Shown: positions 13,372-60,100 of the stretch, piece after piece
Position numbering within the stretch: position 1 is the first letter of the stretch
Layout of the letters: each line of letters starts with the position of its first letter
DNA from: Acholeplasmataceae bacterium
Lineage (GTDB): Bacteria > Bacillota_I > Bacilli_A > ML615J-28 > CAG-698
Reading direction: 5' to 3'
Assembly (NCBI GenBank): GCA_012839485.1
Contig: DUNF01000058.1
Location: forward strand, 1,272 to 65,271
Length of the DNA: 64,000 nt
Position numbers and translations under genes: made by a program
Notes under the pieces: generated by a model
Database searches by the model: none
What the model saw: only the letters and a program-made list of their open reading frames with translations
Told to the model about the DNA's origin: nothing

Positions 13372-13430
13372 TTTTCTCTCCTTCCGCCATGGTTTTTATT
13401 TGCAAACCATAGTAAGTTTTATACTATGTT

Positions 13431-14665: not shown

Positions 14666-14785
14666 GGATCTTATTTTAAGTCCCTATACCCAATATCTTG
14701 AAGTGAACCAGGTCAGGTCGTGACTGAAGCAGCCTTAAGCTTATGTAGGTATGTGGGTGTAGGCACTTAGAGTAAGATCTTTTTT
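14666..14785 (+). ncRNA. ffs: Signal recognition particle RNA, small (4.5S-like) form
   Basis: Contains ACCAGGTCAGGTC...GAAGCAGCC, matching the domain IV core I recall from E. coli 4.5S and B. subtilis scRNA. The 5' GATCTTATTTTAAGT pairs with the 3' ACTTAGAGTAAGATC, followed by TTTTTT. It lies directly downstream of tadA, as scr does in B. subtilis. Ends are approximate. Confidence 0.8.
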
Positions 14786-37907: not shown

Positions 37908-37940
37908 AAAGGTGCTATTTTATAAATAGCACCTTTCTTT
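37908..37940 (+). terminator. Strong hairpin terminator/attenuator at the end of the 15.9-kb operon
   Basis: AAAGGTGCTATTT-tat-AAATAGCACCTTT (13-bp perfect stem), then CTTTTGTTT. The next SD follows immediately. Confidence 0.8.
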
Positions 37941-37957
37941 TGTTTAAGGAGGATTTG

Positions 37958-44200: not shown

Positions 44201-44462
44201 ATTAGTTGGAGAAACTGAATTAGACGTTAGACGTCAAAATGCTAGTTTAAGACTAGATGATCCATTCTCAATTGAATGTGTTCTATTCTATGACAAACGT
44301 AGAGTAATGTATGACCCATATGAAGAAGTAATCGGAATTTGGGCTACTCCATCAGCTGCAAGACCAGCTGAAGAAGGTATCCGTCAAGGAGCAGACTACT
44401 CAGCAGTTGTAGCAGAATGTATGCCAGCATGGCAACAAAAGGTTATCGCACAATTCGGATAG
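41277..44462 (+). CDS. Lipoprotein with at least 5 Big_2 (bacterial Ig-like group 2) domains and a C-terminal solute-binding-protein-like domain
   Basis: Lipobox LLLFGC. Repeated Big_2 pattern (VGQTYQITPTVKPADATDKTVTYDSNNKAVATVSASGLVSAVAKGTAVITV and four more). The last ~460 aa look like a sugar SBP (ADFYIVTTTWLNQF, SDRWTHSDFEQWV). SD AAGGAGG. Confidence 0.65.
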   Translation: MKKWLSLLLVFGLSLLLFGCSRDDKVIEVTSVELKSNAEELQVGQTYQITPTVKPADATDKTVTYDSNNKAVATVSASGLVSAVAKGTAVITVKAGTKQAELTITVVQEEEVQLVITVPQEAATIVVGGTYTIGAQVKDQTGAPKPATLAYASNNNDVATVDDSGKVTGHAAGTAVITITSGELSKTVTITVTAEEPSERAIAGVPEEDPENNVYIFIGRTFTATVANLREGETVAWSTQDTEVISLSDEGAVEALEAGIATIHAIVSDAEGNQVADLSATFEVMDESVLPLFVSEPGYTLKREEIAVDYQANYKTNKVDEITKDVIYKVEDITDPENPVELGQNYEANEQEIPAEDIAEVLTFVIAADGTSKTGVNRGRLRVVALKPGLLRITAKVGDETSEPFELRLIDRPMPTELVISAPNNDPQIETKGGSLKLSASSKPAFSYSTVTWSSNNPLVDVRADGTLICNGTDDDIGTVVTITATSTVVEGLTATIDITIKEKYVEVIETPEPTSITINGYPDVFIGETYQFTADVGPAGANQAVVWSSQNDAYATVDENGLVTVHAAGEGKSFYIIARAPSVENPGTYAVTQRYQIRAAKPPIDPDPINLNGYQITIMNAGHALFDQDPFLPQYAGADKTAKQAAWREVEEAYNCTIKVVAYPEEAPWGPARVQWINNNANNTKGGADFYIVTTTWLNQFSASQALFPVQDLYIRFGKNSMDPASREAATYKGNLYAMSASTYGANYIDRGLFFNLNLLEEVGMENPAQMFMSDRWTHSDFEQWVLDAQVAIGQKGEGYYAICGRPFFYWAGMINAAGIKMVDSASASLNVDGPIQRSVVNVLKRIYMNHQAWDPTPGYDGQTEAFRTEKAIMDGGEMWFVKTDNRWPIDMWSPNDSSGTRYGYVPFPYPDNMTKEQTKVITKGGSIYAMVNHMTHKHVAAGLNDDAVAYEGIYRALNDVFRWTERKQKEAGELVGETELDVRRQNASLRLDDPFSIECVLFYDKRRVMYDPYEEVIGIWATPSAARPAEEGIRQGADYSAVVAECMPAWQQKVIAQFG

Positions 44463-44480
44463 AATTTAAAGATATAAACA

Positions 44481-44510
44481 AAACCACATGATTTTATCGT
44501 GTGGTTTTTT
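44481..44510 (+). terminator. Rho-independent terminator
   Basis: AAACCACATG-attttat-CGTGTGGTTT followed by TTTTT. Confidence 0.8.
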
Positions 44511-44522
44511 ATTTCTCTTTTA

Positions 44523-44551
44523 TTGTTATTTGACCTTAGATATGGTATAAT
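44523..44551 (+). promoter_or_regulatory. SigA promoter (extended -10) ahead of the DUF624-like gene and the MurNAc operon
   Basis: TTGTTA, 17 nt (incl. TGg), TATAAT (extended -10). Confidence 0.55.
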
Positions 44552-44574: not shown

Positions 44575-45375
44575 ATGGATGTAGAAAAGTATGTCAATAG
44601 TAAAGCTTTTATCTTTTTTGAGTGGACATATCGTTTAATAATAATGAATTTATTGAATCTTTCAATAATTATAACTATGAGTTTTGGTTTTTGGGTGCTA
44701 TTTATTGCCATTCAAAAAATGACTTATTTTTATCTAGCAATTCTACTAACGCTTTTGGGCTTAATTATTACTTCAATTGCTAGTTTTAAAACGATTAAAG
44801 ACTTAAGTGGGTACCGAAGGAGTGGTTTGTATAAAACCTATTTTTCCAATCTTTGGTTTAGTTTTAAAGATCTTTGGTTTATAGAACTGCTTATTGTAAT
44901 TATTTATGCCTTTCTATTAGGATCATCATTAACATATAGTTTGATTTTAAATCACGAAGATTTTACTTATGATTTTATAGGGATAGTTTATACCGTAGGT
45001 TACTGGCTTGATTGGATTTTATTATTTTTCTTAACTCAAGCTGTGATTTCGTTTTGGGCTGTCTATAGTCATTTTCAAATGACAAAGTGGAATTATATTA
45101 AAGCTAGTTTTTATATGTCTTTTAAGTTATTTTTACCAACATTGTTAGCGGGTATTTTCTTCTTTTTAACACCAGTTTTAATAATTGTTTTAGGTTTAAT
45201 TCTTAGTCCAATGTTATCATTGTTGCTTATTTCATTTTTTAGTTTATTTGGAATTACCTTGCCTCAGTATTTATACTTTAGAATGATAAAAGGCAAATAC
45301 GCATATCTTACAAAAAACCCTGATGATATTCAGGATTTCGATAAATATGAATTAGAAAAGGAGAATGAAATTTAA
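44575..45375 (+). CDS. Polytopic membrane protein, YesL/DUF624-like
   Basis: 266 aa with 6 hydrophobic spans. The N-terminal FFEWTYRLIIMNLLNL pattern and a location next to sugar-transport genes resemble DUF624 proteins. Tentative. Confidence 0.45.
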   Translation: MDVEKYVNSKAFIFFEWTYRLIIMNLLNLSIIITMSFGFWVLFIAIQKMTYFYLAILLTLLGLIITSIASFKTIKDLSGYRRSGLYKTYFSNLWFSFKDLWFIELLIVIIYAFLLGSSLTYSLILNHEDFTYDFIGIVYTVGYWLDWILLFFLTQAVISFWAVYSHFQMTKWNYIKASFYMSFKLFLPTLLAGIFFFLTPVLIIVLGLILSPMLSLLLISFFSLFGITLPQYLYFRMIKGKYAYLTKNPDDIQDFDKYELEKENEI

Positions 45376-45455
45376 ATTAGGAATTGATTGTATTGATGAA
45401 CACTTAGATTTGTTTAAATGAAAAGACTAATTTAGTTGCTTTATTTAGTCCTGAG
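45365..45455 (+). pseudogene. Decayed duplicate of the namZ (DUF1343) 5' end
   Basis: 45365-45415 matches 46174-46224 at 46/51 nt, and 45417-45455 matches 46300-46338 at 37/39 nt. The intervening 75 nt of the intact gene are missing. The remnant reads MKFKLGIDCIDEHLDLFK, then TGA. Its ATG sits behind AAGGAG in the 3' end of the upstream gene. Confidence 0.8.
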
Positions 45456-45594
45456 TATTTAGATAATGAAGGAAATGTAGTTAAACATTCGCTAAGAGAT
45501 AAGATAGTTAGTTATGAAGTAAAAGCTGCTATCAAGGACAATCAAAAACATATAAATATCAAACAAAAATCAAAAAGTTATTAGAGGTGGAAGT

Positions 45595-47316
45595 ATGAAA
45601 AAAGTATTGAAATTTGTTTTAGTTCTTTTCCTTTTTGTAGTCTTAGTAGGTTGTAAGAAGGAAGAAGCATTTAAGGCTGTAGAGAATTTAATTGACAACA
45701 TCGGTGAAGTTACTCTAGAAGACGAAGCATTAATTAATGAAATTGAAGAAAAATTTAATGCTTTAAGTGAAGAAGATCAAGAGAAAGTTGCTAACTTAGC
45801 TGTTTTAGTAGATGCACAAGTTACGCTTGATAGTTTAAAATTCTTAGCTGAATTAGACATTAATTATGATGATGCAACTTTAGCTGTATTAACTGCTTTA
45901 AAAGGCAAGATTAACAATTTAAGTAATGATGTAGCTAATAAAATTCAAAATGAAATTAATGCAGCATTAGATAAAATTAATAAACACATTAAAAATTTAG
46001 AATTCGAAGCTGCTGTGTTAGCTTTAAATGGCGAGGTTGATAAAGAAGCATTAGCTCAACTAGACCTTGTATATGAATCTATAACAGAAGAGTTTAAAGC
46101 AAAACTTAAGGCAGATATTAAACAAACATATTTTACATTATCGGCGCAAGCTAAAGAACAAGGAGAAGAAAGAATGAAATTAAAATTAGGAATCGATCGT
46201 ATTGATGAACATTTAGATTTATTTGAAGGAAAGAGAGTAGGTTTAATTACTAACCCTACTGGGATAAATTCGAAATATCAATCTACAATTGATGTTTTGA
46301 ATGAGAAAACTAATTTAGTTGCTTTATTTAGTCCTGAGCATGGGGTAAGAGGGAACTTACAAGCTGGGATTAATTTAGGAACTTATGTAGACGAAGAGAC
46401 AGGGATTACTGTTTATTCGTTATATGGAGATACAAGAAAACCATCAAAAGAAATGTTAGACGAAATAGATATTTTATGCATAGATATTCAAGATGTTGGG
46501 GCAAGATTTTATACTTATGTTTATACGATGGCTTATTCAATGATGGCCTGTAAAGAAGAAGGAAAGAAGTTTGTAGTGTTTGATCGCCCAAATCCAATTA
46601 ATGCTTCTGATTATGAAGGCAATATTTTAGATATCAATTATCGTTCTTTTATTGGTTACTACCCAACAATCCAACGTCATGGAATGACAATTGGGGAACT
46701 TGCTTATTTATTTAATGAAGAGTTTGAGATTGGCTGTGATTTAGAAGTTATTAAGATGGCTAATTATGACCGCACTAAGTATTTAGATGAATTAGATATT
46801 TTATATGTTTATCCATCTCCTAACTTACCGACAGTTAATAGTTGTATTTTATATCCAGGTACATGTATTTTTGAAGGAACTAATCTGAGTGAAGGAAGAG
46901 GTACTGCAACTCCATTTGAGTTAATTGGGGCACCTTATATAAACTCAAAAGAATTAGCTGATAAATTAAATAGTATGAATATTGAAGGAGTTTACTTTAG
47001 ACCACAATACTTTACACCGATTTATTCGAAAAATAAAGATTTATTATGTGGTGGTGTGTATATTCACGTTTTAGATCGTAAGAAATTGAAGTCAGTATCG
47101 TTAGGGTTTATCTTACTTGATACAATTAGAAACTTATATCCAAATGACTTTAAAGTTAACCCACCTTGGAGCGAAGGCGGAAGAACGATGTTAGACTTAA
47201 ATACAGGGACAGATAAGATATCTAAATACTTACTTACTTTAGAAGAACAACTTGCTTGGATTAAAGAAGATACTAAAAAGTTTGGTGAGATTAGAAGTAA
47301 ATATTTAATTTATTAA
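45595..47316 (+). CDS. namZ: Lipoprotein form of exo-beta-N-acetylmuramidase NamZ (DUF1343/GH171) with a 193-aa helical N-terminal module
   Basis: Lipobox VLVGC, then helical repeats. From Met194 (46174, preceded by a vestigial AAGGAG) it reads MKLKLGIDRIDEHLDLFEGKRVGLITNPTGI...LFSPEHGVRG...DIQDVGARFYTY, the DUF1343 pattern. Confidence 0.75.
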   Translation: MKKVLKFVLVLFLFVVLVGCKKEEAFKAVENLIDNIGEVTLEDEALINEIEEKFNALSEEDQEKVANLAVLVDAQVTLDSLKFLAELDINYDDATLAVLTALKGKINNLSNDVANKIQNEINAALDKINKHIKNLEFEAAVLALNGEVDKEALAQLDLVYESITEEFKAKLKADIKQTYFTLSAQAKEQGEERMKLKLGIDRIDEHLDLFEGKRVGLITNPTGINSKYQSTIDVLNEKTNLVALFSPEHGVRGNLQAGINLGTYVDEETGITVYSLYGDTRKPSKEMLDEIDILCIDIQDVGARFYTYVYTMAYSMMACKEEGKKFVVFDRPNPINASDYEGNILDINYRSFIGYYPTIQRHGMTIGELAYLFNEEFEIGCDLEVIKMANYDRTKYLDELDILYVYPSPNLPTVNSCILYPGTCIFEGTNLSEGRGTATPFELIGAPYINSKELADKLNSMNIEGVYFRPQYFTPIYSKNKDLLCGGVYIHVLDRKKLKSVSLGFILLDTIRNLYPNDFKVNPPWSEGGRTMLDLNTGTDKISKYLLTLEEQLAWIKEDTKKFGEIRSKYLIY

Positions 47317-47327
47317 GGAGAAAATTA

Positions 47328-49949
47328 ATGAAAAAATTACATGAATTAACTTTAGAAGAAAAAATTGGCCAGTTGTTTATAGTTGGTTTTTATGGCGAGG
47401 AGTTTAATAACGATTTACTTAATTTAATTAAAGATTATAAAATCGGAAATGTAATTTTATTTTCTCGTAATATTTCTGCGGTAAAACAGTTATATAAATT
47501 AAATAAAGATATCCATACTAATATGGAAAAACATTTAGGAATTATGCCTTTCATTACAATTGACCAAGAAGGAGGAATGGTTACAAGAATCTTTAATGAT
47601 GCAACTTTTTTTCCTGGGGCAATGACAATTGGAGCAACAAAGCTTGATAATGCTTATTATGTGGGGCAAAAGATGGGAGATGAGTTAAGAGCTTTAGGAA
47701 TTAACTTTAACTTAGCCCCAACATTAGATGTGAATAATAATCCTCATAATCCGGTAATTGGTGTTAGAAGTTATTCAAGCAGTGAAAAACAAGTTGCAAA
47801 CTATGGCATAGCTTATATTAAAGGGTTACAAGAAAAAGGAATTATTGCAACTGCAAAACATTTTCCTGGTCATGGAGATACAAATATTGATAGTCATTTG
47901 GGACTGCCAATAATTGAACATTCAAAAGACCGTTTAAATAGAATTGAACTTTATCCATTTAAAAAAGCTATAGCTTCAGGTTTAGATGCGATTATGAGTG
48001 CGCATATTATTTTTAAAGCATATGATAGTGAAAAACCAGCTACTTTATCTAAAGCAGTATTAACTGATCTTTTAAAAAAAGAGTTGGGATTTGAAGGTTT
48101 GATTGTAAGTGACTGTATGGAAATGAAAGCTATTGATGATACAGTTACTGCACCAGTTGGTGTTTTAGAAGGTTTACTTGCAGGGCTGGATATGGTTTTT
48201 GTAAGTCAAACACCTGCCAAACAAATGAAAGCAGTAGAACTTGTGAAGGAAGCAGTGTTAAATGGAAAGTTTCCTTTAGATTTATTAGATGAAAAAGTAG
48301 AAAAGATATTAAAATATAAAGCTAAATCATACGAACTATTAAAGAATGAATTTTTTAGTAAAACATATAATGAGCAAGAAGAAATATTGCTTAATCCAGA
48401 AACTAAAGCTAAAGCTTTAGAGATTGTAGCTGAATCGTTAACTTTAGTAAAAGGAGATAATGTAAATCCAAGTTTAAAAACTTTAGTTTTAGCTCCAGAT
48501 CCATTTGCCTCTACAATCATTGAAGATGAGTTTTCTAAAAATGATCGTTCAATTTACGATATGGTAAGATTAGAAAATAATCCTAACTTAGTTCCTTATC
48601 GAATTAAGATTAAACCTTCAAAAGAAGAAATAGATAAATATTTAGAATTAGCAAAAGATTATAAACAAATAGTTTTATGTACATATAATGCTACAATTAA
48701 CCGAGGCCAAATTGAACTTGTTAGAAAACTAAATAATTTGGATAAAAAGTTATATGTAATTAGTATGAGAAATCCTTTTGATATTTTAAACTTTAAGGAA
48801 GTTTCTAATTACTTAGCATTATATGAATACACACCTAATTCAATTAAAGTTTTAATTAGTTATTTAAATGGCGAAATTAAACCAAAAGGGAAATTACCTG
48901 TTTCTTTAAAGGAAAAAACCGAGTTTGGTGCAAGTGTTTATTTAGGTTTAGATGATTATAAATTGGAAGATAATTTAAAATATTTAGAAAAGTTAAAGAA
49001 AAATGGCTTTAGTTTTGTTTTTGTATCGATGCATATGCCTGAAGCAGGAAGTCATGTTTATGATGAGTTTTTAGCGATTAAGGATAAAGCTAAAAGTTTA
49101 GGTTTAGAGTTAATAGTTGATGTTTCTAAACCAACTTTTGATAAACACAAGATGTTTGGTGTTGATCGTATTCGTTTAGACTGGGGTTTTAGTAAAGAAG
49201 ATATCGTTGATTTAGTTTTAGATGGTTATGATATTGAACTTAATGCTTCGACTTTAACGGAAGAGTTAGTTGATTATTTAAAAGAAAGAATAGATTTATC
49301 TTTAGTAACGGTTAGTCATAATTTTTATCCAAAGAAATATACTGGGTTAAAATATGAAGATGTGAAGGAAAGAAACAACTTTTTAAACAATTTAGGTTTT
49401 AAAGTTATGGGCTATATTGCATCGCTAGAAAACAAAAGACCTCCTTTATATCTAGGATTACCTACAGTAGAAACAATGAGAAAGATGCCAGTTTTTCTTC
49501 AAAAACAAGAAATGGAACTTTTAGGTTTTTCGAAAATTTGTTTTGGAGATGCGATTATTAGCAATAAAGAATTAAAAGAGTTAACAGAAGAAAAGGAATA
49601 TTTTACTGTACCTTTAGTTTTAAAAAAGGGAATTTCAGAAAAAGAAAAAGAAATTATTAATAAAGTTCATCGTGTTAGAATTGATCAATCAGAGTATATG
49701 ATTCGTAGTACTAAATATCGCGGAGAAAAAGGAATTGAACCAAATAATACAGAGAAAAGATCAAAGTATGATATTACGATTGATAATGATTTGATGAAGA
49801 GATATTCTGGTGAATTAAATATTATGCTAACTGATTTAGAAGCCGATAAAGCAGTTAACGTAGTTGGTAGAGCAATTTTGAGTGATTTTAGTTTAGACTA
49901 TTTAAAGATGCAAATACCATTTGTTTTTGAAGTTATTGGAGAAGAATAA
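47328..49949 (+). CDS. nagZ-mupG: Fusion: GH3 beta-N-acetylglucosaminidase (NagZ-like) plus DUF871/MupG-type 6-phospho-N-acetylmuramidase (GH170)
   Basis: GH3 motifs: TIDQEGGMVTR, KHFPGHGDTNIDSHL, IVSDCM, ending at KGKLPVSL. After a 6-aa linker comes GASVYLGLDDYKLEDNLKYLEKLKKNGFSFVFVSMHMPE, a DUF871-type N-terminus, and ~340 further aa. No signal peptide. Confidence 0.75.
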   Translation: MKKLHELTLEEKIGQLFIVGFYGEEFNNDLLNLIKDYKIGNVILFSRNISAVKQLYKLNKDIHTNMEKHLGIMPFITIDQEGGMVTRIFNDATFFPGAMTIGATKLDNAYYVGQKMGDELRALGINFNLAPTLDVNNNPHNPVIGVRSYSSSEKQVANYGIAYIKGLQEKGIIATAKHFPGHGDTNIDSHLGLPIIEHSKDRLNRIELYPFKKAIASGLDAIMSAHIIFKAYDSEKPATLSKAVLTDLLKKELGFEGLIVSDCMEMKAIDDTVTAPVGVLEGLLAGLDMVFVSQTPAKQMKAVELVKEAVLNGKFPLDLLDEKVEKILKYKAKSYELLKNEFFSKTYNEQEEILLNPETKAKALEIVAESLTLVKGDNVNPSLKTLVLAPDPFASTIIEDEFSKNDRSIYDMVRLENNPNLVPYRIKIKPSKEEIDKYLELAKDYKQIVLCTYNATINRGQIELVRKLNNLDKKLYVISMRNPFDILNFKEVSNYLALYEYTPNSIKVLISYLNGEIKPKGKLPVSLKEKTEFGASVYLGLDDYKLEDNLKYLEKLKKNGFSFVFVSMHMPEAGSHVYDEFLAIKDKAKSLGLELIVDVSKPTFDKHKMFGVDRIRLDWGFSKEDIVDLVLDGYDIELNASTLTEELVDYLKERIDLSLVTVSHNFYPKKYTGLKYEDVKERNNFLNNLGFKVMGYIASLENKRPPLYLGLPTVETMRKMPVFLQKQEMELLGFSKICFGDAIISNKELKELTEEKEYFTVPLVLKKGISEKEKEIINKVHRVRIDQSEYMIRSTKYRGEKGIEPNNTEKRSKYDITIDNDLMKRYSGELNIMLTDLEADKAVNVVGRAILSDFSLDYLKMQIPFVFEVIGEE

Positions 49950-50866
49950 TGAAGAAAGCAATGATAGGTGTTGATGCTGGTGGCTCTTCAACAAAACTAG
50001 CCTTGTTTTTAGAAGATGGGACGATTGTAAAGAAACTAAAAGCTAAGGCAGGATCTAGTGCATCAGTTAAATCAGCTTTGGAGAATGTAGAAGAAGGGGT
50101 TTATAAGTTGTACGAAGAAGTTAAAAATGAGTATGACTTAAAAGCTATCGTTATTGGTTTAAGTGGACTTAAAGCTAATTCTAAAGAATCTTTAGAAAAG
50201 TTAGTTTCTAATTTAAAAGCAAAAACTAATCTTGATGTATTATTAAACCCTGATACTTTAATTGCTTTATACTCTCATTTAAAAGATGAATATGAAGAAG
50301 GAATTGTTGTTATATCTGGTACTGGTCATGCTTCTTTTGGTTTAAATAAAAATGGTAAATCAATGATGATTGGTGGCTGGGGGTATATGATTTATGAAAT
50401 CGGTAGTGCCTTTAGTGCTGTTCAAGATTTAATTATTAAATCAGTTAGGCATTATGAAGAAGAAGGTAAAGTCTATCCGTTAGCCCAATCTTTAATAAAA
50501 GCAATTGGTTTAAGCACAATAGATGACTTAAGAGTATTTATGTATCATAATGATAAAAAAGAGATTGCAAGTTATGCTTATTTAATTACTGATGGAGCTA
50601 AAGCTGGAGATAGAATAGCCTTAGAGATTTTAGATGATGCAAGTAAAGGTATTGCTAGGTCAATTAAATTACTTGTAAAGCATTTAGAATTAAAGGAAAC
50701 TGCTGTTTTGGGATTTACAGGAGAATATATTAAAAACTCTAAAATCTTACAAGAATTAGTATTAGAAAAATTACAGAAAGAGAAGATAAAGTTAAAATAT
50801 TTAGAAGGTAGTATTGACCCTATTTATGGAGCCTATTACCTAGCTAGGAAGAAAGGCAAAATATGA
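49949..50866 (+). CDS. BadF/BadG/BcrA/BcrD-type ATPase; putative GlcNAc/MurNAc kinase (MurK-like)
   Basis: IGVDAGGSSTKLALF phosphate-1 motif and VISGTGHASFG. The family includes the clostridial MurNAc/GlcNAc kinase MurK. Confidence 0.65.
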   Translation: MKKAMIGVDAGGSSTKLALFLEDGTIVKKLKAKAGSSASVKSALENVEEGVYKLYEEVKNEYDLKAIVIGLSGLKANSKESLEKLVSNLKAKTNLDVLLNPDTLIALYSHLKDEYEEGIVVISGTGHASFGLNKNGKSMMIGGWGYMIYEIGSAFSAVQDLIIKSVRHYEEEGKVYPLAQSLIKAIGLSTIDDLRVFMYHNDKKEIASYAYLITDGAKAGDRIALEILDDASKGIARSIKLLVKHLELKETAVLGFTGEYIKNSKILQELVLEKLQKEKIKLKYLEGSIDPIYGAYYLARKKGKI

Positions 50867-51993
50867 AAGTTATTGGTTTAATGAGTGGGACATCTTTAGA
50901 TGGTGTAGATGCTGCATTAGTAGAAATCAAAGGTAAAAAAGTTCAACTTTTGAATTTTGTTACTTATCCTTATCCTAAAGAGTTCAAAGCTAAACTAAAA
51001 AAGAATTTAAATAACGAACAAGCAAAATTAGAAGAAATCTGCAGTTTGAATTTTGAACTTGGAGATTATTTTGTTTACGCAATTGATGAAGTTTTAAAAG
51101 ACAAATATAGTTATGATGATATTGATTTAGTTGCAAGCCATGGTCAAACAATTTGGCATAATCCTAAAGGATTAAAAGGCCAAAGAGCATCTACCTTACA
51201 AATAGGAGAAGCAGCTGTAATTGTGGCTAAGACAAACATCACAACAGTATCTAATTTTAGAGTTAAAGATGTAGCCTTAGATGGTGAAGGTGCACCACTT
51301 GTTCCTAAAACTGACTTTTTGCTTTATCATAACAATAAGAAAAACATTGTCTTACAAAATATTGGTGGTATTGGTAACTTAACATATTTACCAAAAGATG
51401 CTAAGGAAGATGAAATTTTGGCGTTTGATACTGGCCCAGGTAATGTAATGATTGATTACTTTATGCACAAGTATTATGGCAAAGCTTATGATGAAGATGG
51501 TAAAAAAGCCTTTAAAGGAATAATTATTAAACCTTTATATGATTATTTAATGAGTGATAAATTTATAAAAAAAGCTCCACCTAAGAGTACAGGTAGAGAG
51601 CAATATAATGAAACGTTTTTTGAAAGTTTAGTTAAGAAGTTCAATTTAGACCAATATAGTAAAGAAGATGTTATTTGTACAGTTACAAATATTACAGTAG
51701 ATTCTATTGTCTATAACTATGAGAAGTACTTAAAAGAGATTGATTTAGTTGTAGTTACTGGAGGAGGATCACATAATAAATACGTAGTATCCGAGTTAGG
51801 AAAAAGACTAGGAGTTGAAGTGGTTACAGGAACTGACTACGGAATTGAAAATGATGCTAAGGAAGCTTTAAGTTTTGCTTATTTAGGATATTTAAGTTTT
51901 AACTATAAAACAGGAAACTTGAAATCAGTTACTGGAGCTAAAGAAAATACTATTTTAGGAAATATTACTTATGGAAGGTATCGCCATGGTTGA
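50863..51993 (+). CDS. anmK: Anhydro-N-acetylmuramic acid kinase
   Basis: MKVIGLMSGTSLDGVDAALVEI, SHGQTIWH, FDTGPGNVMID; 376 aa. Confidence 0.85.
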   Translation: MKVIGLMSGTSLDGVDAALVEIKGKKVQLLNFVTYPYPKEFKAKLKKNLNNEQAKLEEICSLNFELGDYFVYAIDEVLKDKYSYDDIDLVASHGQTIWHNPKGLKGQRASTLQIGEAAVIVAKTNITTVSNFRVKDVALDGEGAPLVPKTDFLLYHNNKKNIVLQNIGGIGNLTYLPKDAKEDEILAFDTGPGNVMIDYFMHKYYGKAYDEDGKKAFKGIIIKPLYDYLMSDKFIKKAPPKSTGREQYNETFFESLVKKFNLDQYSKEDVICTVTNITVDSIVYNYEKYLKEIDLVVVTGGGSHNKYVVSELGKRLGVEVVTGTDYGIENDAKEALSFAYLGYLSFNYKTGNLKSVTGAKENTILGNITYGRYRHG

Positions 51994-52897
51994 TTTAAGT
52001 AAACTAACAACAGAAAAAAGAAATAAGAATACTTATGATATTGATAGTTTAGATAGTTTAGGAATTATCAAGAAAATCAATGAAGAAGATAAACAAATTG
52101 CTTATGAAATTGAAAAGCATTTAGAAGAAATTGCTTCAGTAATTGATGATGTAGTAAAAAGTTTTCTAGAAGGTGGAAGACTTATTTATATTGGTGCTGG
52201 TACTAGTGGAAGGTTAGGGATTTTAGATGCAGTTGAATGCCCACCTACATTTAGTGTGGATTTTGAGCAAGTTCAGGGGTTGATCGCAGGGGGAGAGAGA
52301 GCATTTATCAAAGCGGTAGAAGGAGCTGAAGATAATAAAGAGTTAGCTGTAAAAGATTTAAAAGCAATTAATTTGTCTGATAAAGATACTTTAATTGGTT
52401 TAAGTGCTAGCGGTAGAACCCCTTATGTAGTTTCTGGCATAGAATATGGCAATAAAATTGGTGCCAAAACAGCTTCAATTGCAACATCTTTAAATAGTGA
52501 AATTGGTAAGATTGCGAAGAAGAAAATTGAAGTTGTAACTGGTGCTGAAGTTTTAACCGGTTCTACCAGACTAAAATCAGGAACTGCTCAGAAGATGATT
52601 TTAAATATGATCTCAACTGCTAGTATGATTCAAATGGGTAAAGTTTATGAGAACTTAATGATTGATGTTAACCCTACAAATGAAAAGTTAGTTGCAAGAG
52701 CATTGTCAATTATTCAAGATATTACAAAAGTAGAAAAAGAAGAAGCTGCTTTGAAATTAAAGCGATATAAAACAGTAAAAAAGACTATTTTTCATTTACT
52801 AACTAAGGAAGAATCTTTAGAAAAAATAGATTATTACTTAAATAAAAATCATGGACATTTACGAAAGGCAATAGCTAGTTATGGTAAAAAGTGTTGA
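51986..52897 (+). CDS. murQ: N-acetylmuramic acid 6-phosphate etherase
   Basis: LTTEKRNKNTYDID, IYIGAGTSGRLGILDAVECPPTF and TGSTRLKSGTAQKM are SIS-domain MurQ signatures. ATG at 51986 follows GGAAGG; the track start is 51971. Confidence 0.85.
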   Translation: MVDLSKLTTEKRNKNTYDIDSLDSLGIIKKINEEDKQIAYEIEKHLEEIASVIDDVVKSFLEGGRLIYIGAGTSGRLGILDAVECPPTFSVDFEQVQGLIAGGERAFIKAVEGAEDNKELAVKDLKAINLSDKDTLIGLSASGRTPYVVSGIEYGNKIGAKTASIATSLNSEIGKIAKKKIEVVTGAEVLTGSTRLKSGTAQKMILNMISTASMIQMGKVYENLMIDVNPTNEKLVARALSIIQDITKVEKEEAALKLKRYKTVKKTIFHLLTKEESLEKIDYYLNKNHGHLRKAIASYGKKC

Positions 52898-53615
52898 TTT
52901 AAAAAATGGCGATTATACTTTAAGAGGTATATATAGTAAAGGTGAAAGTGAAAAGATAGTAATTATGTTTCATGGCTATACTGGTCATAAAGTAGAACAT
53001 AATGGAATGTTTCGAAGTTTATCAAGGATTTTATTAAAAGAAGATATCTCTTCTTTAAGATTTGACTATTATGGCAATTTTGATAGTGATGGTGAGTTTA
53101 CTGATTTTACCTTTGATACACTATTTAGCGATGCTAGATGTATTATTAAATACGCTTATGATTTAGGCTATAAGGAAGTTGTTTTATTAGGCTATTCAAT
53201 GGGTGGCGCTTTAGCTTTAGCAGTTGCTCATGAAGAAGCAAGAATAAAAAAGGTAGTTGTTTGGAATCCTGCTGGTAATATTAATGAGCTTGTGAAAAGA
53301 AGATATGAGATTACTGAAAAGGATGAAAAAGGTAATACAATTACTTTAAACTTTTCTTTATCAAAAGCGATGTTTGATTCTAGTTTTAAATATAAGTGGT
53401 ATGAGCTAGCAAGTAAATATCAAGGAAAAGCTTATGTAATTAAAGGCGCTAAAGATTTAGCTGTGCCTTTGTTATATAACGATAAATATTTAGAAGTGTT
53501 AAAAAATAAGGTTTCTTTTATTATCAAAGATGGAGACCATGGTTTTGATAATAAAAAAGATCAAGAGTTATTATATAAGAAAACGATAGAATATATTAAG
53601 GAGGAAGAAAGTTGA
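52881..53615 (+). CDS. Alpha/beta-hydrolase (serine esterase/peptidase)
   Basis: Nucleophile elbow GYSMGGA, an HG oxyanion motif (MFHGYTG), and a C-terminal DGDHGF. Confidence 0.65.
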   Translation: MVKSVDLKNGDYTLRGIYSKGESEKIVIMFHGYTGHKVEHNGMFRSLSRILLKEDISSLRFDYYGNFDSDGEFTDFTFDTLFSDARCIIKYAYDLGYKEVVLLGYSMGGALALAVAHEEARIKKVVVWNPAGNINELVKRRYEITEKDEKGNTITLNFSLSKAMFDSSFKYKWYELASKYQGKAYVIKGAKDLAVPLLYNDKYLEVLKNKVSFIIKDGDHGFDNKKDQELLYKKTIEYIKEEES

Positions 53616-54400
53616 AAATTATAGTATGTATTAAACAAGTACCTGCAAGTACTGAGGTAGAAATAGATCCCATTACAGGTAACTTAATTAGAGATGGTCG
53701 AAATGCGAAGATGAATCCTTATGATTTATATGCGATTGAAACAGCTTTAAGAATTAAAGAGTTCAATGGTGCTCATGTAGCTACAATCTCAATGGGTCCA
53801 CCTTCAGCTTTAGCAGTATTGAATGAATCTTTATGGATGGGTTGTGATGATGCTACAATCATGACTGATCGTAAATTTGGGGGAGCTGATGTTGTAGCAA
53901 CTAGCTATACTTTAGCTCAAGGAATTAAATTAATAGGCGGAGCTGATTTGATTATCTGTGGTAAACAAACAACAGATGGTGATACTGCTCAAGTAGGACC
54001 GGAAATAGCTGAGAATTTAAAGATTCCTCATTTATGTTATGTAGATAAGATTATCGAAATTAAGGAGAAATCAATTGTTGTTCAAGTAGATATGGATCAT
54101 ACTGAAGAAGTATGGGAGATTGATTATCCGTGTTTAATTACGGTAAATAAAGGTATTTTCACACCAAGACTTCCTTCTTATAGAAGAAGCAAAAAGTTTA
54201 AAGATTATGAAATTAGACAAATTCATTTTAGTGATATGGTTGATCAAAATGAAGCGCATTATGGTCTAAAAGGGTCGCCAACACAAGTTGAAAGAATGTT
54301 CCCGCCAATTAAAAATACTGATAAAGAATTATGGGAAGATACTGATGAAAATTTAGCTTTGAAATTGTCTAACAAATTAAAGGAAATGAAGGTAGTATAA
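53612..54400 (+). CDS. etfB: Electron transfer flavoprotein beta subunit (LctB-like)
   Basis: MKIIVCIKQVP..., NPYDLYAIE, ICGKQTTDGDTAQVGP. TTG start 7 nt after AGGAGG. Confidence 0.85.
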   Translation: MKIIVCIKQVPASTEVEIDPITGNLIRDGRNAKMNPYDLYAIETALRIKEFNGAHVATISMGPPSALAVLNESLWMGCDDATIMTDRKFGGADVVATSYTLAQGIKLIGGADLIICGKQTTDGDTAQVGPEIAENLKIPHLCYVDKIIEIKEKSIVVQVDMDHTEEVWEIDYPCLITVNKGIFTPRLPSYRRSKKFKDYEIRQIHFSDMVDQNEAHYGLKGSPTQVERMFPPIKNTDKELWEDTDENLALKLSNKLKEMKVV

Positions 54401-54401
54401 G

Positions 54402-55604
54402 ATGGCTAAAAAAGGAATTATTGTAGTTAACAAGAGTAACGTAAATAAAGATTTAATTGAAGATTATGTTAAGAGTTGTCCTTTTAAGGCGATTGTAGCT
54501 AAAGATGGTAGTGTTGATGTTGATCAATCTGCTTGTAAGATTTGTCGAATATGTGCTAAAAAGTTTGCTGATGTTTTTAAGTTTCAAGAAATTGAAGAAG
54601 AAAAGATTAATAAAGATGAGTGGGTAGGAATTACTGTTTTTATTGAACATGATGGAAATAAAATTCACCCAGTATCATTAGAATTAATCGGGAAATCTAA
54701 AGAGCTTGCAAAGGTAACTGGACATCCAGTTTATGCTATACTTTTTAGTGATGATGCAAATAAATTTACCGACACTTTATTAGCTTATGGAGTTGATAAA
54801 GTATACTCATATGAGCATAAACTACTAGGACATTTTAACGTAGAATATTATGTAGAAGTGATGGCGGATTTTGTTTCGAAAGTGAAACCTTCAACAATCC
54901 TTTATGGTGGTACAGCAATTGGTAGAAGCTTTGCCCCAAGAGTTGCAGCAAGACTTAAGACTGGTTTGACTGCTGACTGTACAATTTTGGATATGAAAAA
55001 GAATACAGATTTAGTCCAAAATCGTCCTGCTTTTGGTGGTAACATTATGGCTGGAATTATTTGTGAGAACACAAGACCACAAATGGCTACAGTTCGTTAT
55101 AAGATCTTCAAAATGCCAGAAAAGGTTAAACCTTTTGGTGCTGTTGAAAAGATGAGTTTGAAAGATATTAAGTTTAAAACTAATATGAGATTAGTTGAAA
55201 CAAAAGAAAAGCCAAAAGAAATTGATATTTCTGAGGCAGATACAATCGTATGTATTGGGAAACCATTTAAAACTAAAGAACAAATTCAAATGGCAAAAGA
55301 ATTTGCTGATTTAATTGGGGCACAACTTGCTTGTACTAGACCACTTGTAGAGGCAGGAGTTATGCCAGCTACAAGACAAATTGGCCTAAGTGGTAGAACA
55401 GTTTCGCCTAAACTTCTTGTTTGTTTGGGTATTAGTGGAGCTGTTCAATTTACTGCGGGAATGAAAGGCAGTGAAGTAGTTTTCGCTGTTAACAATGATA
55501 AAAATGCAGCTATTTTTGACTTTGTTCATTATGGTTTAGTAGGGGATATTTTTACAATACTACCTGAATTAATTAAGACTTTGAAAGGGGAAGAAGATGT
55601 ATAA
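54402..55604 (+). CDS. etfA: Electron transfer flavoprotein alpha subunit with N-terminal ferredoxin-like [4Fe-4S] domain (LctC-like)
   Basis: N-terminal Cys pattern SCPF...CKICRIC. The Etf-alpha core has GGTAIGRSFAPRVAARL, RPAFGGN and GISGAVQFTAGM. Confidence 0.8.
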   Translation: MAKKGIIVVNKSNVNKDLIEDYVKSCPFKAIVAKDGSVDVDQSACKICRICAKKFADVFKFQEIEEEKINKDEWVGITVFIEHDGNKIHPVSLELIGKSKELAKVTGHPVYAILFSDDANKFTDTLLAYGVDKVYSYEHKLLGHFNVEYYVEVMADFVSKVKPSTILYGGTAIGRSFAPRVAARLKTGLTADCTILDMKKNTDLVQNRPAFGGNIMAGIICENTRPQMATVRYKIFKMPEKVKPFGAVEKMSLKDIKFKTNMRLVETKEKPKEIDISEADTIVCIGKPFKTKEQIQMAKEFADLIGAQLACTRPLVEAGVMPATRQIGLSGRTVSPKLLVCLGISGAVQFTAGMKGSEVVFAVNNDKNAAIFDFVHYGLVGDIFTILPELIKTLKGEEDV

Positions 55605-56988
55605 AAAAGTGACAAACAAAGATGTTTTGGCTTTAGAGAAATTAATTGATAAAACAAGAGTTTTTATTTATGATGATTCAATTTCAGAATATTCAAAAGA
55701 TGAACTTGGTACTTTAATTGGTAAGCCAGAAGTGATTGTGAAAGTAGAATCGACTAAAGAAGTATCTAAAGTTGCTAAATATGCTTATGACAATAACATT
55801 CCATTAACTGTAAGAGGAAGTGGAACTGGTTTAGTTGGGGCATGTGTACCATTATATGGTGGTATTGTTTTGGATATGACTTTAATGAATAAAATTATTA
55901 ATTTAGATGAAGAAAACCAAATTTTAGAAGTTGAAGCGGGAGCATTACTAATGGATATTGCTGATTATACTAAAGCAAGAGGTTATCTATATGCTCCAGA
56001 TCCAGGCGAAAAATCGGCAACAATAGGTGGTAATATTACAACTAACGCTGGTGGTATGAGAGCCGTAAAGTATGGAGTTACTAGAGATTGGGTCCGTGCT
56101 TTAGAAGTAGTTTTAATGGATGGAACAATTTTAGAGTTTGGGAAGAAAGTTGTAAAAGATACTTCAGGTTATTCTTTGAAGAACTTAATTATTGGTAGTG
56201 AAGGGACACTAGCAATTGTAACTAAAGCTTATTTAAAGGTAGTTTCACTACCTGAAAAAAGTTTAAGTTTACTTGTTCCTTATGCTAGTTTAGAAAAAGC
56301 TATTGAACAAGTTCCGAAGATTTTGAATTCAGGAACTAATCCAACAGCAATTGAGTTTTTTACAAGAGAAGCTTTAGAGTATTCAGAGACGTTTTTAGGT
56401 AAAAAGTTCCCAGATCAAAACAGTCCTGCTTATATTTTACTTACTTTTGATGGTTCGCAAGCTGAGGTAGATGAGAATGCTAAGAAGGCGTCAGAACTAT
56501 TAATTAACAAGTTTGAAGCAGTAGATGTTTTGATTGTTGATACTGATGAAAGAAACGAAGATGTTTGGAGTGCTAGGAGTTCTTTCTTAGAAGCTATTAA
56601 AGCTTCTACACCTTTAATGGATGAGTGTGATGTAGTAGTGCCACGTTCTGAAGTGAGCGATTATATTAAATACACTTATGAGTTAGAAGAAAAGTATGGC
56701 TTAAGACTTCCTTCATTTGGCCATGCTGGTGATGGTAATTTACATATTTATATTTGTAAAGATGACTTATCAGATGAAGAATGGGAAGTGAAACTAGATC
56801 TAGTATTCCATGATTTATATAAGAGAGCTAAAGAAGTTGGTGGTTTAGTATCAGGAGAACACGGAATTGGCTATGCTAAGATGGAATATTTAAAAGAATC
56901 ATTAGGAGATGTGCAAATTAATTTAATGAGAAATATTAAAGCAGCATTCGATCCTAAAAATCTTTTAAATCCAGGAAAAATAGTGTAA
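55597..56988 (+). CDS. FAD-linked oxidase, GlcD/LctD-type (D-)lactate dehydrogenase
   Basis: VRGSGTGLVG, GGNITTNAGGMRAVKYG and GEHGIGYAK are FAD_binding_4/GlcD motifs. Overlaps etfA by 8 nt. Confidence 0.75.
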   Translation: MYKKVTNKDVLALEKLIDKTRVFIYDDSISEYSKDELGTLIGKPEVIVKVESTKEVSKVAKYAYDNNIPLTVRGSGTGLVGACVPLYGGIVLDMTLMNKIINLDEENQILEVEAGALLMDIADYTKARGYLYAPDPGEKSATIGGNITTNAGGMRAVKYGVTRDWVRALEVVLMDGTILEFGKKVVKDTSGYSLKNLIIGSEGTLAIVTKAYLKVVSLPEKSLSLLVPYASLEKAIEQVPKILNSGTNPTAIEFFTREALEYSETFLGKKFPDQNSPAYILLTFDGSQAEVDENAKKASELLINKFEAVDVLIVDTDERNEDVWSARSSFLEAIKASTPLMDECDVVVPRSEVSDYIKYTYELEEKYGLRLPSFGHAGDGNLHIYICKDDLSDEEWEVKLDLVFHDLYKRAKEVGGLVSGEHGIGYAKMEYLKESLGDVQINLMRNIKAAFDPKNLLNPGKIV

Positions 56989-57007
56989 ACGCTTTTTAAA
57001 AAGCGTT
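56988..57007. terminator. Hairpin at the end of the MurNAc-lactate operon (weak as an intrinsic terminator)
   Basis: AACGCTTTTT/AAAAAGCGTT perfect palindrome directly after the stop codon. No downstream T run on the + strand. Confidence 0.4.
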
Positions 57008-57046
57008 AAAAAAGCGCTAAAACAAAAGAGAAATTCTTGAAAAACC

Positions 57047-57075
57047 TTGACTTTTATACAGAGATAATGTAGAAT
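57047..57075 (+). promoter_or_regulatory. SigA promoter of the giant lipoprotein gene
   Basis: TTGACT, 17 nt, TAGAAT. ~75-nt leader, then AGGAGG at 57136-57141. Confidence 0.6.
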
Positions 57076-57151: not shown

Positions 57152-60100
57152 ATGAAAATGAGAAGATTTTTCGGTGCACTTTTGATGCTTGTATTTGCCT
57201 TAACTGTGGTAGGCTGTGTAAGCAACAAGAAGTACAACGATGTTGCTGAACAGCTAAACAACGCTCAAACTCAATTAGACGCAGCAAATGCACAATTGAC
57301 AGTATTAGAAGAGCAAAAAGCTGCTCTTGAGTTGCAACAACAAAATCTAAACGCAGAGAAGGCAGCATTAAATGCTAGAATCGCTCAACTTGAAGAATTC
57401 GAAGGTTTATCTGCCGAACTAGAAGAAGAACTAGCTCAATTAAACGAAGAGAAAGAGGCTCTTGATGCCAGAATAGCGGAAACAGAAGCTGATTTAGCAG
57501 CTCTTCAAGAGTTAGTTGCCGCACTAAGCAATAGACCTGTTGCGCCGACTTCATTAGAACTATTTTTAATCGGTTCAACGCTTGTAGGAACATCTACAAA
57601 TGCAGCTGAGCCTGATATTGACTATGTAGTTACACCAGCTGGCGCATATACTGGTTTATATTTTGAGGTTGAAAATCCTGAGATTGCAAGTGTTGATAGC
57701 TTAGGTCGTGTTACTGGTTTAAAACCTGGTAAAACTAAGATCAATGCTTGGTCTACACTAGATCCAAGTGTTAAGGATTCAGTTGATTTTGAAGTTATCG
57801 AAGCTGGAGCAGATTTAGATATCGTAATCGCTGCAGTTAACGAAATTTATGCTCAACTAAATAGATCATATGTTGCTGAAGATTTAGCATTAATGCATGC
57901 TTCAAACCCTTCAGTAAAGATCTCATACTTAAAAGGATCAGAAGTTATTGCTGAGTACGTAGATGGCGAATTAACACGTGGTACAGGTTACTACGCATAC
58001 GAAGCACCTGCAGTAGATAAACTTGAAAAAGTTACTATTAAAGGTGAATATGGCGCAAACAACGTACAACACAATATGGAACTTACTCTATTCGTTGTTG
58101 CTGATTTAGCAAACAATGCTTTCAATAGAGTACAAATGGCAAGAGATATCGTTGAATCTTACCTACTTCCTTATACATCAGAAGTAGAAAAAGTTTCAGC
58201 TGATTTAGCTTTAGAGGCTGAAATTGCTGGCGTAGAAATTGTATACACAAGCAGTGCTAAACAAGTTATTAGCAATGAAGGTGCATATGTACGTCCACTT
58301 GATGACACTAAAGTTAACTTCCAAGTTATGTATAAGTATCAAATCCCTGGTGGTGAATTATACACTGAATCAGCAGCATATGACGTATATGCTAATGGAT
58401 ATACTGCAGATGAAAAAATGGACTACATCGTTAATGAAGGGTCACTTGCTTTCTTAAATGGATATGCAAGCAACGTTAACATTAACTTACCAGCTGCAGA
58501 TGACAAATTTGATGCTAAATTAACTTATGTTTCAGATAAACCAGAAGTTTTTGATAACGCTGGTAAATATGCTAATCAAGAATTAGCAGAAGCTACTGTA
58601 GTTACTTACACAGTTAGTTTCGAATACCTAGGAGAAGTTTTAGGAACTAGAGAAGTTGCAGTTACTGCAAACTTACCTTCAGTTGCTTCAAAAGCAGCTA
58701 ATGCTTTTGCTAACAACAACGAAGTTCCTGCTCATTTCCCTTATGGTGTTAAAGGTAGAGCAGGCGGAAATGCTCTTCCAGGACTTGTAGCTACACAAGC
58801 AGTTGGCGAAGATACAGCTAACGTTGCTTGGGAAGCACTAGAACCTGAATTATGGGCAGACGGCTTTGTATTAAATGCACAATATTTAAGATACCGTGAA
58901 ACTGCTTTAAAAGCTACATTCACAAATGCAGCTGATGAAACAGATAAAGCTGAATTAGAATTAGTTATAAATATCGGTGCTGGAAAAACTAAAGATGATA
59001 TTATTGTTGCAGGACGTTTCTCACAACAAACATCTACAGTTTATAAAGAAAAATGTGATACATTAGCATTATTCTCATACTTTGATCCAGTTGTTGGTGT
59101 TTTAAATATGGCATTCCCAACATATTACTCAGGTTATATGTTCTCAATTCAAGGCGAATTCAGACAAGCTCCAAACAATCCTGATATTGAAATTTTCTAC
59201 CAAGGAGAAGATGCTTCTAGAAGCAACTTATATATCAGACATGACTCAGTAATTTATGTTACTGGTAAAAAAGACAATGGCGAAGGTATCTTTGATAATA
59301 GTACTTTAATTCAAGGTACTGGTGGTAACTGGCCTGTATTATATGTAAACAATTATACAGAAACAGTAAAAGTTCCACTTGCTGTTCACGTAACAGGCAA
59401 TGGTTCAGATGGAAATCCAATTGTATCAACTGGTTTCTCTCGTGAATTTGCTTTAACAGTTGACGGTTACAGAACTGTTTTCATTGTTAACTTAGAAACA
59501 GGTGAAGTAGTATCTGGTAATGGTAAGAGCGGAATTCAATTCGCTTACCCAGCAGGAACAAAATATCTTGAACTTCCTGCAAACCATGCTATTTACTGTC
59601 CAAAAACACAATCAAATAATGCTATTTACAATGGCGTATTCTGTGTACAAGGAACTCATCTAGAAGTTAATCATCATGATTTACATCCAAAGAACAGTTA
59701 TTTCATTGATACAGCTAATGCACAATTAGAAAACGCTGAAGCTTCAATTGCTAAGTTAGAAGCTGGTGAAGCATTAGGCGAAGAAGATGCTAACCCAGTT
59801 ACAGCTTTAGCAACAGCTAATGCAAGAGCAAACAATGCTAGATTATCAGATGCTGAAAAAGCTGGATTTAATGCCGCAAAATACGCTGAACTAGCTGGTC
59901 GTTATGCTTTATTATTCAATGAAGAATTACAAGCATTAAAAGATAGCAAAGGTGAAATTGGCTTCTATATGGAAGACTATGTAGTAGCATTACAAGCTGC
60001 TTATGATAAGTATGATGCTTTACCTGAAGCTGCTCAAGATGCTGTTCCATTAAAAGCTTGGTTACTTGCTGAAAAAGCACTTTACTTAGATACAAACTGG

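Follow-up and report, generated by a model that had tools for sequence, protein, structure and literature searches.

A predicted operon joining MurNAc catabolism to an Etf-dependent lactate dehydrogenase in an Acholeplasma-like bacterium

During degradation of N-acetylmuramic acid (MurNAc), the etherase MurQ releases D-lactate (PMC6165865), and the fate of this by-product has so far been considered only for respiring bacteria with a quinone-linked Dld. What becomes of it elsewhere is a question raised by a stretch of 64,000 nt from an Acholeplasmataceae bacterium (assembly GCA_012839485.1, contig DUNF01000058.1), which was analysed as a whole and is referred to here as the window; all coordinates refer to it, and the host DNA has a GC content of 30% here. 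In the window, nine genes on the plus strand, from namZ to lctD (45595-56988), combine MurNAc catabolism with LctBCD, a lactate dehydrogenase that works with an electron-transferring flavoprotein (Etf). An earlier note on this DNA had read them as one operon, in which the D-lactate from MurQ is oxidised by the Etf-dependent complex, and this interpretation was supported in every part that is accessible to sequence analysis. It is likely that a ten-gene operon (44575-56988) turns MurNAc sugars of foreign peptidoglycan into central metabolites and that LctBCD thereby oxidises the MurQ-derived D-lactate.

The LctBCD module within the MurNAc operon

According to the list of open reading frames, the nine genes encode the exo-beta-N-acetylmuramidase NamZ (45595-47316), a GH3-MupG fusion protein (47328-49949), a MurK-like kinase (49949-50866), the anhydro-N-acetylmuramic acid kinase AnmK (50863-51993), the MurNAc-6-phosphate etherase MurQ (51971-52897), an alpha/beta-hydrolase (52881-53615), EtfB (LctB, 53612-54400), EtfA (LctC, 54402-55604) and LctD (55597-56988), all on the plus strand. 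The reading frames, Pfam and NCBIfam agree with the order and the identities proposed in the earlier note, and the spacings between the genes (+11, -1, -4, -23 or -8, -17, -4, +1 and -8 nt from namZ to lctD) match the gaps and overlaps given there. The overlap between anmK and murQ measures 23 nt if murQ is read from the opening of its frame at 51971 and the reported 8 nt if it starts at the second ATG (51986); the latter is the likely start, as it has the better ribosome-binding site (GGAAGG) and yields a protein of 303 amino acids, as in the relatives. The TTG start of etfB overlaps the stop of the hydrolase gene by 4 nt and is preceded by the ribosome-binding site AAGGAGG; judged from this overlap and the strong ribosome-binding site, etfB is translationally coupled to the hydrolase gene.

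The absence of an internal terminator had also been claimed, and in the consensus scan no credible terminator was found in the operon: terminator-like sites occurred at background level (8 against 7.3 expected in shuffled sequences), and those located in the operon lack T-runs. Scans with Rfam and for tRNA genes likewise gave no match within the operon. The nine genes are presumably transcribed as one unit. Nearly every gene of the window lies on the plus strand, so that co-directionality alone is uninformative on operons; it is the conservation of the linkage in diverged genomes, described below, which argues against a chance neighbourhood.

Domain identities of the encoded proteins were taken from Pfam and NCBIfam, and the nearest solved structures from a comparison with PDB chains. 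For LctB, LctC and LctD alike, the nearest solved relative is the matching chain of the Acetobacterium woodii complex PDB 7QH2, with wide margins. EtfB, which is of the bifurcating type (Pfam ETF), reached 310 bits with 7QH2_B and 211 bits with the next chain, EtfA (Pfam ETF and ETF_alpha), which possesses an N-terminal ferredoxin domain for one [4Fe-4S] cluster, reached 439 bits with 7QH2_A and 245 bits with CarE, and the predicted FAD- and metal-dependent D-lactate dehydrogenase subunit LctD (Pfam FAD_binding_4 and FAD-oxidase_C) reached 571 bits with 7QH2_C and 211 bits with the next chain.

The LctD proteins of the window and of A. woodii are 57% identical. In the latter, the lactate and metal site is formed by L80, R328, L332, E344, D346, H377, H384, Y386, E422 and H423 (PMC9232219). 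All ten residues were invariant in an alignment of the window protein with five relatives, one Mitsuokella sequence and A. woodii LctD, the positions in the window protein being one below the A. woodii numbering. In EtfA, Cys26, Cys45, Cys48 and Cys51 form the motif C(x)18CxxCxxC, whose spacer is one residue longer than in the motif C(x)17CxxCxxC of A. woodii LctC, where the ferredoxin domain is essential for the enzyme (PMC9232219). Gly123 of EtfB, located in the sequence DGDTAQVG, aligns with Gly123 of the EtfB of A. fermentans (4KPU_B); this glycine is invariant in bifurcating Etfs, in which it leaves room for the beta-FAD, whereas in canonical Etfs of lct clusters, such as that of F. nucleatum, a bulky residue takes its place (PMC12630350). 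By chain margins, site residues, ferredoxin cysteines and the EtfB glycine, the three terminal genes belong to the LctBCD family in every feature that can be tested on sequence, as had been claimed, and the complex would depend on ferredoxin like that of A. woodii.

A conventional, non-bifurcating Etf, which passes the lactate electrons to another acceptor as with the butyryl-CoA dehydrogenase (Bcd) of Fusobacterium nucleatum, is hardly to be expected. Clusters of Ldh with a canonical Etf do exist (PMC12630350), and the window resembles the lct clusters of F. nucleatum and Lachnospiraceae in that a FAD dehydrogenase of the D-lactate type is paired with EtfAB (PMC12630350, PMC8914356). However, most Etfs of these clusters are of the canonical kind, with Bcd as the electron acceptor, whereas in the window Gly123 is kept, EtfA carries the ferredoxin domain, the nearest solved relatives are all bifurcating Etfs, and neither Bcd nor any other acyl-CoA dehydrogenase is linked.

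The least probable of all alternatives is a dehydrogenase whose substrate is a D-2-hydroxy acid other than lactate, for example glycolate, D-2-hydroxyglutarate or D-malate. Annotation pipelines do label LctD as glycolate oxidase or FAD-binding oxidoreductase, and the GlcD model of NCBIfam matches it, although with 368 bits and thus below the cut-off of 568. Against this stand the identity to A. woodii LctD, the ten conserved substrate-site residues, and the 571 bits compared to 195-211 bits for glycolate oxidase, D-2-hydroxyglutarate dehydrogenase and mitochondrial D-lactate dehydrogenase. An identity as glycolate oxidase was rejected because of these score margins and the conservation of the active site. 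In public databases, LctD and its relatives are found as 'FAD-binding oxidoreductase', 'glycolate oxidase' or '2-hydroxy-acid oxidase', and no NCBIfam model names LctD; such generic labels hide the lactate link from automated annotation.

D-lactate is the predicted substrate of the LctBCD complex of the window. When engineered C. glutamicum utilises MurNAc via MurQ, lactate accumulates transiently (PMC6165865), which indicates that the by-product of MurQ is real. Furthermore, the Ldh of F. nucleatum, which is 51% identical to A. woodii LctD, prefers D-lactate (PMC12630350), and gut strains having an lct cluster without a racemase use D-lactate only (PMC8914356). Classical lct clusters encode a permease, which imports lactate, and a racemase, which makes the L-isomer usable. 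The absence of permease and racemase genes from the loci described here therefore fits a substrate that arises within the cell, already as the D-isomer.

The comparison with the LctBCD system of A. woodii (PDB 7QH2; Weghoff 2015; Kayastha 2022, PMC9232219) leads to the same point. Both systems have the genes in the order etfB, etfA, lctD, and they agree in the residues of the active and metal sites, in a ferredoxin domain for one cluster and in an EtfB of the bifurcating type. In contrast to A. woodii, the window possesses neither lctA (GntR) nor the permease gene lctE nor the racemase gene lctF, and the genes are located inside a MurNAc operon instead; the ferredoxin spacer comprises 18 instead of 17 residues, LctD belongs to a separate clade, and the substrate is predicted to come from MurQ within the cell and not from imported DL-lactate. 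The GntR/FCD regulator, the permease and LarA of the classical operon (lctABCDEF) are thus a trait of the context and not a requirement of the enzyme.

Recurrence of the linkage in other genomes

The neighbourhood search proposed in the earlier note bore out the linkage. All seven other LctD homologues that were examined (61-88% identity) are encoded in the same operon order, namely membrane protein, NamZ, GH3-MupG, kinase, AnmK, MurQ, hydrolase, EtfB, EtfA and LctD. The nearest species-representative genome, Acholeplasma sp. AS08sgBPME_237, has the same operon with protein identities of 84-96%. The loci of this order cover 30-51% GC, and their kinases and hydrolases are only 31-39% and 37-44% identical to those of the window, respectively; the low identities and the wide GC range indicate that the arrangement survived deep divergence.

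A scan of genome contigs with the single LctD sequence gave 11 loci, one of them informative (L007). A profile-based scan of metagenomes yielded a sample of 80 LctD loci (50-63% identity), whose 10-kb flanks were read and which were sorted by tblastn, clustering of open reading frames and Pfam checks. Genes of wall-sugar catabolism were present in 12 of these loci and classical partners (GntR/FCD, lactate permease and/or LarA) in 23, while no locus had both; the remaining 45 were uninformative, many of them lying on short contigs. The regulator, permease and racemase families of the classical loci were verified by Pfam, and a GntR regulator, a lactate permease or LarA was detected in none of the 12 wall-linked loci. 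In addition, tblastn with examples of GntR/FCD, permease and LarA gave no match in the window and in the loci L001-L007 and L018-L026, which have the gene order of the window.

The wall-linked loci show at least three gene orders. The first (T1) is that of the window (L027-L029) and also occurs in a shorter form without GH3 and kinase genes (L109). The second (T2) was found in a metagenome-assembled genome of Erysipelotrichales (L107), where murQ is directly followed by etfB-etfA-lctD amid rearranged MurNAc genes (DUF624, NamZ, GH3, kinase, AnmK, MurQ, EtfB, EtfA, LctD, and then GH4, kinase, HAAS/DUF4097, MupG and hydrolase). The third (T3) occurs in metagenome-assembled genomes labelled Tenericutes GWE2_38_8 and Acholeplasmataceae and reads GH73, LD-carboxypeptidase, x, NAGPA, EtfB, EtfA, (GNAT), LctD, MurR/RpiR, AnmK, kinase, GH4 and GHL10. 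The gene between etfA and lctD in T3 loci, for example at 9091-10005 of L041, encodes a GNAT acetyltransferase, and the GH4 glycosidase gene of this cluster adjoins a second kinase gene of the BadF type.

Two syntenic loci, L108 and L109, whose flanking aminoacyl-tRNA synthetases are 78% identical, form a natural gain-or-loss pair. In L109, etfB-etfA-lctD lies between the hydrolase gene and the convergent aminoacyl-tRNA synthetase gene, whereas only a hairpin terminator is present at the same site in L108. From this clean presence and absence it follows that lctBCD behaves as a cassette, and that the hydrolase belongs to the MurNAc half of the operon. In an indicative neighbour-joining tree without support values, the wall-linked LctD proteins form one clade apart from A. 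woodii LctD and from the sequences linked to permease or racemase genes. It can be proposed with moderate confidence that Bacilli without a wall or with a thin one (Acholeplasmatales and relatives of Erysipelotrichales) recruited a distinct clade of LctBCD as the last module in their catabolism of peptidoglycan sugars.

Several observations weigh against the proposed oxidation of MurQ-derived D-lactate by one co-transcribed pathway. The wall-linked LctD proteins all belong to a single group of related Bacilli (Acholeplasmatales and Erysipelotrichales-like), so that shared ancestry explains part of the recurrence. The MurNAc operon of L108 lacks lctBCD, and the module is therefore dispensable. 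No murQ gene was found within 10 kb in T3, where the link is to murR and anmK only, and no genes for a ferredoxin, PFOR, Rnf or NagA are present in the 64-kb window. Promoter-like sequences also occur within the operon, for example at 53545-53574 in AT-rich DNA; in DNA of 30% GC, the consensus scans for promoters and terminators perform about like shuffled background and neither confirm nor exclude an internal promoter. Finally, the reaction of the A. woodii complex is reversible, which means that its direction cannot be read from a sequence.

Two other explanations build on these points. If LctBCD were inherited baggage that serves external lactate, with a permease encoded elsewhere and the MurNAc genes as a chance neighbour in one lineage of Bacilli, the single clade in related taxa and a MurNAc operon that works without the module, as in L108, would be accounted for; moreover, the inspection for a permease covered 64 kb of the genome only. 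This explanation is unlikely, although it is the strongest of the alternatives, because the link has been kept through at least three gene orders and from 30 to 51% GC, the Erysipelotrichales genome has lctBCD in the midst of MurNAc genes, permease, racemase and GntR genes are confined to the 23 other loci and occur in 0 of the 12 wall-linked ones, and the genes are translationally coupled.

The complex might also run in reverse as an electron-bifurcating pyruvate reductase, which forms D-lactate and reduced ferredoxin at the expense of NADH during fermentation of amino sugars. This is thermodynamically possible, since the complex of A. woodii, which is driven by reduced ferredoxin, is reversible with a delta G0' of about +6 kJ/mol (PMC5861303). 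It is nevertheless quite improbable, as it leaves unexplained why the genes were repeatedly placed next to murQ, anmK and murR rather than next to glycolytic or N-acetylglucosamine (GlcNAc) genes, more lactate would be formed in a pathway that releases lactate in any case, and no exporter is linked. The oxidation of internally formed D-lactate is hence the preferred reading of the linkage.

MurNAc genes, operon boundaries and surrounding region

NamZ of the window (Pfam NamZ_N 276 bits, NamZ_C 163 bits) has a lipoprotein signal with the lipobox LVGC and an N-terminal extension of about 190 amino acids. The 220-nt gap ahead of namZ holds a decayed copy of the same gene (45362-45458, plus strand), which was detected by blastx as the 5' end of a leaderless namZ in two fragments, with stop codons and an internal deletion; the fragments match residues 193-213 (81% identity) and 235-249 (93%) of the window protein. 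At the position of this relic, relatives have either a leaderless NamZ that starts exactly there or two tandem NamZ genes. By this comparison, the NamZ of the window has acquired its lipoprotein leader and the extension.

The second gene encodes a fusion of 873 amino acids, which consists of a NagZ-like GH3 beta-N-acetylhexosaminidase and the 6-phospho-N-acetylmuramidase MupG (Pfam Glyco_hydro_3, MupG_N and MupG_C). All NamZ, GH3 and MupG domains scored far above the Pfam cut-offs, and the GH3 part lies just above the cut-off of the NagZ equivalog model NF003740 (212.9 versus 207). A second GH3 fusion of the window combines GH3 with a glucosamine-6-phosphate deaminase (NagB; 37940-40219), and in the Erysipelotrichales locus GH3 and MupG are encoded by separate genes.

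The kinase encoded next is a BadF/BcrAD-family sugar kinase (Pfam BcrAD_BadFG), for which no NCBIfam model scored above its cut-off; its nearest solved relative is the MurNAc/GlcNAc kinase 8zo3 (88 bits), and it is considered MurK-like. AnmK (NF007148, 442 bits versus a cut-off of 387; Pfam AnmK, 342 bits) and MurQ (TIGR00274, 370 bits versus 302; NF009222, 398 bits) were both identified by NCBIfam. A regulator MurR/RpiR or a MurP transporter of the phosphotransferase system was not present among the reading frames of the window that were scanned.

The alpha/beta-hydrolase is a putative carboxylesterase of the MurNAc module (Pfam Hydrolase_4 and Abhydrolase_1). Among solved structures, it is nearest to 7q4h and 9h0z (118-121 bits), two uncharacterised proteins of the Hydrolase_4/S33 family; ferulic acid, cinnamoyl and chlorogenic acid esterases come next with 66-92 bits. 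It has few homologues (76 at E <=1e-10), and those with a named source are almost all from a 'Bacilli bacterium'. In L108, which lacks lctBCD, and in L107, where lctBCD is located elsewhere, the gene still accompanies murQ or mupG, and an assignment of the hydrolase to the Etf module was rejected for this reason. This constant association suggests an esterase that would act on substituted MurNAc; tentatively, it may remove a 6-O-acetyl group, which would block the phosphorylation of MurNAc at C6.

Concerning the extent of the unit, the earlier note was right in that it comprises the nine genes through lctD, but the start probably lies one gene upstream. The preceding gene ends in an intrinsic terminator (44480-44508, plus strand; a stem of 13 bp followed by a T-run), which marks the upstream boundary. 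It is followed by a promoter-like site on the plus strand (44523-44551, TTGTTA-17 nt-TATAAT with a TG extended -10), a match to the consensus that is no proof of function, and by the gene of a polytopic membrane protein of 266 amino acids (44575-45375, plus strand; DUF624/YesL-like). The window protein itself gave no Pfam match; its counterparts in relatives (27-39% identity), some of which show a weak match to DUF624, are encoded directly before namZ or overlap it. The terminator and the promoter-like site ahead of 44575, together with the counterparts abutting namZ, indicate that the transcription unit probably comprises ten genes (44575-56988) and begins with the membrane-protein gene. Downstream of lctD, a weak hairpin (56987-57019, plus strand; -11.8 kcal/mol, z-score -1.6) is followed by a promoter-like site (57047-57075, TTGACT-17 nt-TAGAAT) ahead of the next gene.

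This next gene (57152-64000) encodes a surface lipoprotein of more than 2,280 amino acids with Flg_new repeats and runs off the window. In relatives, lctD is also followed by the gene of a giant Big_2/Flg_new protein, and sometimes then by that of an Amidase_2 surface protein (L024, L026).

The 30 kb upstream of the operon constitute a large region for the utilisation of amino sugars and peptides. It encodes an M19 dipeptidase, a beta-lactamase-family protein, GNAT proteins, GHL10, GH20, four permeases of ATP-binding cassette (ABC) transporters, a DUF5696 protein of 1,317 amino acids (31689-35642), the GH3-NagB fusion and two binding-protein lipoproteins of more than 1,000 amino acids each. 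The M19 dipeptidase, the beta-lactamase-family protein and GHL10 are among the genes at 17032-19016 and 19980-21263, and an M55 D-aminopeptidase is encoded further upstream, at 7327-8130 on the minus strand; these four enzymes could process peptidoglycan stem peptides containing D-amino acids. One of the large proteins (23910-27170) is of the solute-binding type and has an SBP_bac_1 domain. The other (41277-44462) has Big_2 domains according to Pfam, and its nature as a binding protein is a reading and not a Pfam match.

Beyond these genes, a small signal recognition particle RNA was located at 14677-14772 on the plus strand (50.8 bits) and a borderline L31 ribosomal-protein leader at 13378-13412 on the minus strand (34.4 bits versus a cut-off of 33.3), and no tRNA genes were found in the 64 kb. 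The GC skew is positive across the window and the cumulative skew rises monotonically, which points to one replication arm with a strong leading-strand gene bias.

Proposed pathway and its meaning for scavenging Bacilli

Members of the Acholeplasma group usually lack a cell wall, and the host, being Acholeplasma-like, probably lacks a wall and does not make peptidoglycan. The operon is therefore best read as serving the scavenging of foreign peptidoglycan rather than the recycling of an own wall, which refines the interpretation of the earlier note.

In the proposed pathway, the surface lipoprotein NamZ would trim MurNAc off the ends of glycan strands, and fragments would be imported by the giant binding proteins and ABC permeases encoded nearby. 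Once these are in the cytoplasm, disaccharides would be split by the GH3 and MupG domains, the MurK-like kinase would convert MurNAc to MurNAc-6-phosphate, AnmK would form the same product from 1,6-anhydro-MurNAc, and the esterase probably takes off an ester substituent. The D-lactate released by MurQ would then be oxidised to pyruvate by the co-translated LctB-LctC-LctD complex. As the oxidation of lactate with NAD+ is energetically uphill, flavin-based electron confurcation as in A. woodii is predicted, in which lactate, reduced ferredoxin and 2 NAD+ would yield pyruvate, oxidised ferredoxin and 2 NADH. Reduced ferredoxin for the complex would have to come from a source encoded outside the window; Rnf has been mentioned for cultured Acholeplasma species in a review (PMC5861303), which makes a ferredoxin metabolism plausible in this lineage.

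The concept that the D-lactate from MurQ requires a D-lactate dehydrogenase is shared with the Dld of E. coli and C. glutamicum (PMC6165865). The Dld of these aerobes is quinone-linked, respiratory and encoded elsewhere, whereas the complex of the window is predicted to reduce NAD+ with the aid of ferredoxin and shares an operon with murQ.

As in MurNAc operons of Firmicutes, the genes for NamZ, NagZ (GH3), MupG, a putative MurK-type kinase and MurQ are clustered in the window. Known examples are murQ-murR-murP-amiE-nagZ-namZ in B. subtilis, murQ-murP-mupG in S. aureus and murK in C. acetobutylicum. Unlike these, the window lacks MurP and MurR and has uptake genes of the ABC type nearby, and it adds AnmK, the GH3-MupG fusion, the esterase and LctBCD; moreover, the operon would serve feeding in a host which probably does not synthesise peptidoglycan.

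The earlier note regarded the linkage as undescribed, and no paper connecting an Etf-dependent lactate dehydrogenase with MurQ or with the catabolism of MurNAc was found among open-access papers and preprints (full text), nor any on Acholeplasma and MurNAc catabolism. The component systems are known; what is new is that their fusion into a single operon is conserved, that the LctD proteins form a clade of their own and that the scavengers concerned are probably wall-less. The generic labels of LctD may explain why the link went unnoticed, and the genomic context could improve the annotation.

If the proposed pathway is correct, such scavengers would ferment the lactyl ether of the MurNAc of other bacteria under anoxia, which would close the carbon balance of anaerobic MurNAc catabolism. 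It would also represent a previously unrecognised role of electron confurcation, in which internally generated D-lactate is oxidised without permease or racemase, and would extend the uses of LctBCD from growth on external lactate to the clean-up of an internal by-product. Stable-isotope probing of slurry showed that 13C-labelled biomass of dead E. coli was assimilated mainly by Acholeplasma (PMC4628116). The operon would provide a genomic basis for this feeding of Acholeplasma on dead bacteria, and a testable set of genes for feeding on peptidoglycan by free-living Acholeplasma-like bacteria in digesters and sediments.

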